A stretch of DNA of 64,000 nucleotides, taken from NCBI RefSeq assembly GCF_003334385.1, contig NZ_QOWN01000006.1. One strand, given 5' to 3'. Positions 50,991 to 51,123 of this stretch are shown in pieces; position 1 is the stretch's first letter, and the number at the start of each line of letters is the position of its first letter. The notes below the pieces were generated by a model that saw only the letters and a list, made by a program, of their open reading frames with translations, was not told where the DNA came from and ran no database searches. Made by a program: the position numbers and the translations under genes. The DNA comes from Escherichia coli. GTDB lineage: Bacteria; Pseudomonadota; Gammaproteobacteria; Enterobacterales; Enterobacteriaceae.

Positions 50991-51009
50991 TTGCAGCCTC
51001 TCATAATAA

Positions 51010-51025
51010 CTGTGATTTTATACAG
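51010..51025. promoter_or_regulatory. LexA box (SOS operator) for yebG
   Basis: CTGTGATTTTATACAG, CTG-N10-CAG with AT-rich centre, 20 nt upstream of yebG ATG. Confidence 0.7.
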
Positions 51026-51070
51026 TGTATTTCTTTTCGGTTGAGAAATCAACATCAGCAATAAAGACAC

Positions 51071-51086
51071 ACGCAAACGTTTTCGT
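51071..51086. promoter_or_regulatory. PurR operator for purT
   Basis: ACGCAAACGTTTTCGT vs consensus ACGCAAACGTTTGCGT; TATACT -10 immediately downstream. Confidence 0.7.
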
Positions 51087-51123
51087 TTATACTGCGCGCG
51101 GAATTAATCAGGGGATATTCGTT

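Follow-up and report, generated by a model that had tools for sequence, protein, structure and literature searches.

LexA and PurR operators in the divergent yebG–purT control region of Escherichia coli

The control region between yebG and purT of Escherichia coli is already published and experimentally dissected, and the finding reported here is a correct re-identification of it. The same intergenic region was analyzed by base-resolution Sort-Seq in both directions by Belliveau et al. (2018, PMC6003448). In the yebG direction, sites for LexA and RNA polymerase were described together with mitomycin C induction, while in the purT direction the -35 and -10 elements were found to flank a repressor (PurR) site, which appears with adenine and vanishes in a purR deletion. 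The purT site also enriched PurR in DNA affinity chromatography, and this binding needs hypoxanthine (PMC6003448).

Both regulators have been described independently at this locus. The LexA consensus is approximately TACTG(TA)5CAGTA, a near-palindrome with the core CTG-N10-CAG (PMC6590174). The yebG LexA box is listed, UV induction is shown and yebF is placed under LexA control in Thomassen et al. (2010, PMC3009722). In Salmonella, yebG has a single LexA box 17 bp from its ATG and is induced 41-fold (PMC8072944), and ciprofloxacin induces yebG and yebF together (PMC11002266). For purT, the PurR ChIP-chip peak carries exactly the 16-mer discussed below, with a log2 ratio of 2.00 with adenine and 1.02 without, and the gene is repressed by PurR with adenine (Cho et al. 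2011, PMC3159470).

The window analyzed here is a 64-kb stretch of E. coli DNA, and all positions given below refer to it. The arrangement of yebG and purT resembles generic back-to-back divergent promoters, in which 11 bp separate the -35 hexamers of two sigma-70 promoters and each core has an operator of its own. It is unlike divergent controls of the araC–araBAD or malT–malP type, which use a shared operator or activator. The sequences, positions, scores, conservation and separability of the two modules were computed in this analysis, whereas binding and regulation are taken from the cited papers; the -10 and -35 hexamers of yebG and both start sites are those that we infer.

Gene context and matches to the two repressor motifs

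The segment 50600–51400 was matched in 5426 of 5426 complete E. coli genomes, and the annotated genes beneath the match were yebF, yebG and purT. The window is E. coli chromosome with the gene order yebE-yebF-yebG in one direction and purT-eda-edd in the other. Similarly, ptrB, yebE, yebF and yebG are on one strand and purT, kdgA (eda) and edd on the other in the K-12 MG1655 record, and the RefSeq annotation of the identical K-12 locus has yebG and purT at the corresponding positions. The NCBIfam equivalog models gave 206 bits for YebG (NF007475, cut-off 161) and 653 bits for PurT (NF006766, cut-off 339), the latter alignment beginning at residue 2. The identities assigned to both genes in the initial annotation agree with the RefSeq and NCBIfam results.

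The genes and their ribosome-binding sites are as follows.

50700..50990, minus strand: yebG coding sequence, 96 aa, DNA damage-inducible protein YebG (ORF list, RefSeq K-12 annotation, NCBIfam NF007475).
50997..51002, minus strand: putative yebG ribosome-binding site GAGAGG, 6 nt before the ATG (read from the sequence).
51110..51115, plus strand: putative purT ribosome-binding site AGGGGA, 8 nt before the ATG (read from the sequence).
51124..52302, plus strand: purT coding sequence, 392 aa and stop, formate-dependent GAR transformylase (RefSeq annotation, NCBIfam NF006766, tblastn).

Positions 50991–51123 are the exact 133-bp gap between the yebG ATG (complement of 50988–50990) and the purT ATG (51124–51126). 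A terminator scan of 50600–51300 found none, which fits co-transcription of yebG and yebF without proving it; yebF is probably transcribed together with yebG, as judged from the sequence. A permissive Rfam scan of 49000–53000 gave no match inside the yebG–purT intergenic region. The scan returned only sub-threshold matches to naRNA4 (REP-like) and one meaningless miRNA match. Two of the naRNA4 matches lie between yebE and yebF, at 50147–50198 and 50219–50295 (28 and 25 bits against a gathering score of 59.5), and these segments are probably REP-type palindromic repeats.

The two operators are located within the gap as follows.

51008..51027, no strand assigned: LexA (SOS) box, 20-mer CACTGTATAAAATCACAGTT on the yebG strand, with the core CTG-N10-CAG at 51010–51025 (matrix, conservation, literature).
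51071..51086, no strand assigned: PurR operator (PUR box) ACGCAAACGTTTTCGT, which occupies the -35/-10 spacer of purT (matrix, palindrome, conservation, ChIP-chip).

The 16-mer core CTGTGATTTTATACAG was read directly at 51010–51025, and 51008–51027 fits the Gammaproteobacteria-type LexA box, with a 16-bp CTG-N10-CAG core, an AT-rich spacer and a 20-bp near-palindrome. For a symmetrised LexA matrix, 17 E. coli boxes were taken from Thomassen et al. (2010, PMC3009722, Table 4), with yebG left out. With this leave-one-out matrix the box scored 18.1 bits, which is the top of the 64-kb window (runner-up 12.5) and within the span of the training boxes (12.9–28.2); the window background has a mean of -27.5 and an sd of 9.1. 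The published K-12 yebG box TACTGTATAAAATCACAGTT (PMC3009722) has the same position and orientation and is identical in 19 of 20 bases, the difference being position 1 of the 20-mer (window 51027), which is C in the window and not T. Like published SOS boxes, the window box combines CTG-N10-CAG with an AT-rich spacer, overlaps a promoter and is kept upstream of yebG across Enterobacterales. Weak LexA-like 20-mers were also observed at 49925–49944 (yebE start, 12.4 bits) and 49642–49661 (inside yebE, 11.9 bits), both scoring under every validated box used. The yebE gene is described as only partly LexA-dependent (Thomassen et al. 2010, PMC3009722).

The PurR matrix was made from 27 motif instances of ChIP-chip sites (Table 1 of Cho et al. 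2011, PMC3159470), again with purT left out. The site at 51071–51086 scored 24.6 bits, the top of the window (runner-up 14.5), and exceeded all 27 training sites (12.0–23.3). It matches the perfect 16-bp palindrome ACGCAAACGTTTGCGT, with its central CG, at 15 of 16 positions, and no other sequence in the window has three or fewer mismatches to this palindrome. The window sequence across the box is that of K-12, where the ChIP-chip 16-mer of purT at 1,928,852–1,928,867, ACGAAAACGTTTGCGT, is the reverse complement of the window box and identical to it. There is thus no difference between the window box and the purT site of the PurR regulon, for which a simple-repression architecture is described (PMC6003448). 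Second-tier matches to the PurR matrix occur at 31200–31215 (14.5 bits) and 41226–41241 (14.2 bits), in the range of the weakest ChIP-chip motif instances (12–15 bits).

The initial annotation had placed a LexA box for yebG at 51010–51025 and a PurR operator for purT at 51071–51086, and had proposed weight-matrix scoring as a check. Both sets of coordinates are correct, both sites score high and are the best of the 64-kb window, and they coincide with the published yebG box and the PurR ChIP-chip 16-mer. The distance of 45 bp given there between the two 16-mers is exact, since 51026–51070 comprises 45 bases.

Promoter geometry and cross-species footprint

The promoter elements are as follows.

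51024..51029, minus strand: likely yebG -10 hexamer, TACACT here and TATACT in K-12 (K-12 scan, conservation).
51047..51052, minus strand: likely yebG -35 hexamer TTGATT, 17 bp from the -10 (K-12 consensus scan).
51064..51069, plus strand: purT -35 hexamer AAGACA (consensus scan; 1.31 bits per column).
51088..51093, plus strand: purT -10 hexamer TATACT (consensus scan; 1.92 bits per column), present as claimed in the initial annotation next to the PurR operator.

The purT promoter AAGACA-18 bp-TATACT, with 9 of 12 consensus matches, was the sole promoter returned by the consensus scan of the window region. The PUR box is placed to block initiation, being inside the 18-bp spacer of AAGACA/TATACT; the operator is likewise between -35 and -10 in 44% of PurR-regulated promoters (PMC3159470). 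The same scan of the K-12 sequence also yielded TTGATT-17-TATACT on the minus strand, which drops below the scan threshold in the window because the -10 reads TACACT there. The -35 hexamers of yebG and purT face in opposite directions, with 11 bp between them. The LexA 20-mer overlaps the conserved yebG -10 (TATACT) by 4 bp, an overlap that follows from a promoter assignment by consensus and conservation, and 19 bp (50991–51009) separate the box from the ATG. A G+C-rich discriminator, GCGCGCGG, is present directly after the purT -10 at 51094–51101 and is partly conserved (1.0 bit per column). Such G+C-rich discriminators are typical of ppGpp/DksA-sensitive promoters.

Conservation was analyzed with a YebG-based scan taking one genome per species, which gave 80 loci in which purT was located by tblastn and both matrices were scored. 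The compact divergent layout was found in 59 of the 80 species, including Escherichia, Citrobacter, Salmonella, Kosakonia, Phytobacter, Klebsiella, Raoultella, Erwinia and Pantoea, with 128–141 bp between the start codons and 261 bp in one species. All 59 compact species have a LexA box of at least 17.1 bits at 16–21 bp from the yebG ATG and a PUR box of at least 20.3 bits at 35–43 bp from the purT ATG. Over the whole set, the 250 bp upstream of yebG contain a LexA box scoring 17 bits or more in 79 of 80 species, and a PUR box of at least 20.3 bits was found at 35–87 bp from the ATG in 79 of the 79 loci containing the purT start. The lone exception for LexA was Yersinia nurmii, with a best match of 9.5 bits within 250 bp; purT is absent from the 2.5-kb flank of this locus. 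The orthologous yebG boxes span 17.1–29.4 bits, and the window box (18.1) is at the weak end.

A MAFFT alignment was made of 59 distinct intergenic sequences, comprising 58 other species and the window, with the 261-bp region left out. The CTG and CAG of the LexA core were invariant (2.00 bits per column, the maximum being 2). The LexA 20-mer as a whole reached 1.62 bits per column and the PUR box 1.89, against 0.3–0.4 in the spacers, including 0.40 for the DNA between the two -35 hexamers. The block at 50993–51000, around the yebG ribosome-binding site, had 1.35 bits per column across species, and the AGGGGA of purT is kept within Escherichia and Citrobacter. Within E. coli, divergent alleles vary mainly in spacer DNA and the cores of both boxes are intact. 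In the PUR box, G at position 1 is the sole common variant, among E. coli strains as well as between species. E. coli MS 21-1 (NZ_CP146670.1) carries an ISL3-like ISEc53 inserted inside the yebG LexA box, at the equivalent of about 51013/51014 of the window. The match of this strain to the window begins only at GATTTTATACAG, the ISEc53 transposase gene is immediately upstream, and the 344-bp stretch examined has no yebG adjoining purT.

Matches to short motifs may also arise by chance in AT-rich intergenic DNA without any regulatory role. The bare CTG-N10-CAG pattern is indeed common: the window has 28 copies, compared with 13 ± 3.5 after dinucleotide shuffling (28 reached by 0 of 100 shuffles). 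The window copies are mostly intragenic with G+C-rich spacers, and their excess over shuffles may come from codon usage. The bare pattern is a poor, uninformative predictor of LexA sites. When the whole window was dinucleotide-shuffled 200 times, 4 shuffles reached the LexA score of 18.1 bits somewhere in the 64 kb. Nevertheless, hits at or above this score are expected at 0.024 per 64 kb and 5e-5 per 133 bp (p 3.8e-7 per site), and hits at or above the PurR score of 24.6 bits at 3e-5 per 64 kb and 6e-8 per 133 bp, the latter score being reached by 0 of 200 shuffles. Moreover, the position and sequence of both boxes are maintained across about 80 species despite diverging flanks, and direct evidence of binding and regulation is published (PMC6003448, PMC3159470, PMC3009722). 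The conservation, together with the published ChIP-chip and Sort-Seq results, means that the chance reading is already refuted, and we give it practically no credence.

The footprint also bears on the yebG promoter. The hexamer equivalent to the yebG -10, whose last two bases are the CT of the upstream CTG, reads TATACT in 49 of 59 species and fits TAnnnT in 57 of 59, with 1.79 bits per column for this block in the 59-sequence alignment. For this tally, the CTG-N10-CAG nearest the yebG ATG was used, as Citrobacter has a fortuitous copy overlapping the PUR box region. A TTG-initial hexamer is found exactly 17 bp upstream of the yebG -10 in 43 of 59 species despite a diverged spacer (0.33 bits per column), the Kosakonia/Phytobacter group being without it. 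The conserved hexamer and the TTG at 17 bp, kept in spite of spacer divergence, give independent support to TTGATT-17-TATACT, which is most likely the yebG promoter.

The RNA polymerase site of yebG was reported 9 bp downstream of an earlier computational prediction (Belliveau et al. 2018, PMC6003448), and two 9-bp shifts fit the sequence, namely from TTGCTG to TTGATT and from TATACT to TAAAAT. The -10 may alternatively be TAAAAT at 51015–51020, inside the LexA box, although sequence conservation favours the TTGATT/TATACT reading. LexA would occlude either hexamer.

Taken together, the 133-bp region almost certainly consists of two back-to-back sigma-70 promoters, each with a private repressor operator. 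A LexA dimer on 51008–51027 would cover the -10 and the start-site region of yebG and block RNA polymerase; upon DNA damage, RecA-stimulated self-cleavage of LexA would induce yebG and probably yebF downstream. With plentiful purines, PurR bound with hypoxanthine or guanine between the purT -35 and -10 would exclude RNA polymerase, and as purines fall PurR would leave and purT would be expressed.

Separability of the two operators

The close packing of the two boxes may suggest one coupled control region, acting through protein contacts, looping, promoter interference or supercoiling, in which the centre-to-centre spacing of about 60 bp would be functionally constrained. The gap between the 16-mers is 43–47 bp in most compact loci and the centre-to-centre distance is close to six helical turns, and closely spaced divergent promoters can in principle affect each other through supercoiling. 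However, this spacing follows from two fixed promoter geometries set back to back, and it is broken in several lineages, with 53–57 bp in four species, 172 bp in Klebsiella spallanzanii and 1.7–2.1 kb in Yersiniaceae. Conservation is lacking in the 11 bp that separate the -35 hexamers, and the LexA box, some 75–90 bp upstream of the inferred purT start, is clear of every purT promoter element. Sort-Seq likewise gave direction-specific features only (PMC6003448). Coupling of the two operators is therefore considered very unlikely.

The lineages with altered spacing show how the two parts separate. In K. spallanzanii, about 127 bp are inserted between the -35 hexamers, giving an intergenic region of 261 bp and a box gap of 172 bp. 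The core of this insertion (…CCCCGGGAGCGTACAAATAGTACGTGACCGGGGTAAGCG…, locus 2300–2430) may resemble an ERIC/IRU repeat. In 20 Yersiniaceae loci (Yersinia, Serratia, Edaphovirga and Chimaeribacter), 1.7–2.1 kb separate the starts of purT and yebG; in Y. pestis this interval holds dbpA, encoding an RNA helicase (NF008744, 783 bits), at locus 1025–2407 and in the same direction as yebG. In the Yersiniaceae with separated genes, yebG still has a LexA box and purT still has a PUR box, indicating that the LexA and PurR operators are independent modules. As these sequence comparisons show, the operators travel with their own genes, and the compactness in E. coli is no sign of joint control. The promoters of yebG and purT share nothing, and their closeness reflects the adjacency of the genes rather than joint regulation.

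The over-long purT reading frame and the minority allele at 51027

Two further features concern the yebG-proximal end of the purT reading frame.

51025..51123, plus strand: spurious 33-codon extension of the purT ORF from a GTG, untranslated according to the ORF list, the MG1655 alignment, orthologues, indels and the allele count.
51027, no strand assigned: minority SNP, G here and A in K-12 (alignment with MG1655).

The mechanical ORF list gives purT as 51025..52302, with a GTG start and 425 aa, and this start is inside the LexA box, as the initial annotation had observed. Position 51027 is the sole difference between the window and MG1655 over 156 bp, and its G changes GTA to GTG at 51025, which opens the over-long frame. 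In K-12, no in-frame start is present ahead of the true purT ATG. By tblastn, alignments to the 392-aa PurT begin at residue 1 in 79 of 80 other species, those with purT within the fetched flank, and the DNA upstream of the ATG has non-triplet indels between species.

Translation might nonetheless begin at the GTG in this strain and yield a 425-aa form of PurT, as the frame is open and has a GTG start. Against this, the GTG is created by a SNP in just 91 of 5426 genomes and has no Shine-Dalgarno sequence before it, and the 33 extra codons span promoters and operators with non-triplet indels between species, whereas family profiles and orthologues align from ATG 51124. Furthermore, the purT promoter is located downstream of the GTG, so the purT mRNA should lack this codon. 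The probability of a long isoform is considered negligible, and the true purT start is ATG 51124 as read from sequence and orthologues. The initial annotation was right that the GTG is not the purT start, although there are better grounds for this than its location in the LexA box, namely annotation, orthologues, indels, promoter position and allele frequency.

The G allele was counted with a 55-bp megablast query with the SNP central, which seeds only on genomes carrying G. Of 5426 complete E. coli genomes, 91 (1.7%) carry the allele, O145:H28 STEC, ST540 and pig isolates among them, and the exact 60-mer around 51027 was found in 17 of 5426 genomes. On the yebG strand, the G replaces T by C at position 1 of the LexA 20-mer, which lowers its score from 20.4 to 18.1 bits (2.3 bits lost), and changes the likely yebG -10 from TATACT to TACACT, a hexamer that Intestinirhabdus alba also has as its yebG -10. 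The G allele weakens both the LexA box and the -10 hexamer and might therefore measurably retune yebG(F), in its basal level, its induction ratio or the size of a spontaneously ON subpopulation; we regard this prediction from sequence as possible though rather doubtful. A precedent is the single-base polymorphism in the yebG box between Salmonella ATCC 14028 and ST4/74 (PMC8072944). If true, such retuning would amount to natural variation in the regulation of an SOS gene and not to a new mechanism.

Three things are added here to the published picture: a SNP accounting for the ORF artefact, a cross-species footprint in favour of one yebG promoter assignment, and the separability of the operators. 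They have little import beyond annotation quality, in that mechanical ORF calling over-extends purT in strains with one SNP. Within 133 bp, the yebG–purT region offers a textbook example of two simple-repression promoters that are independent of each other.
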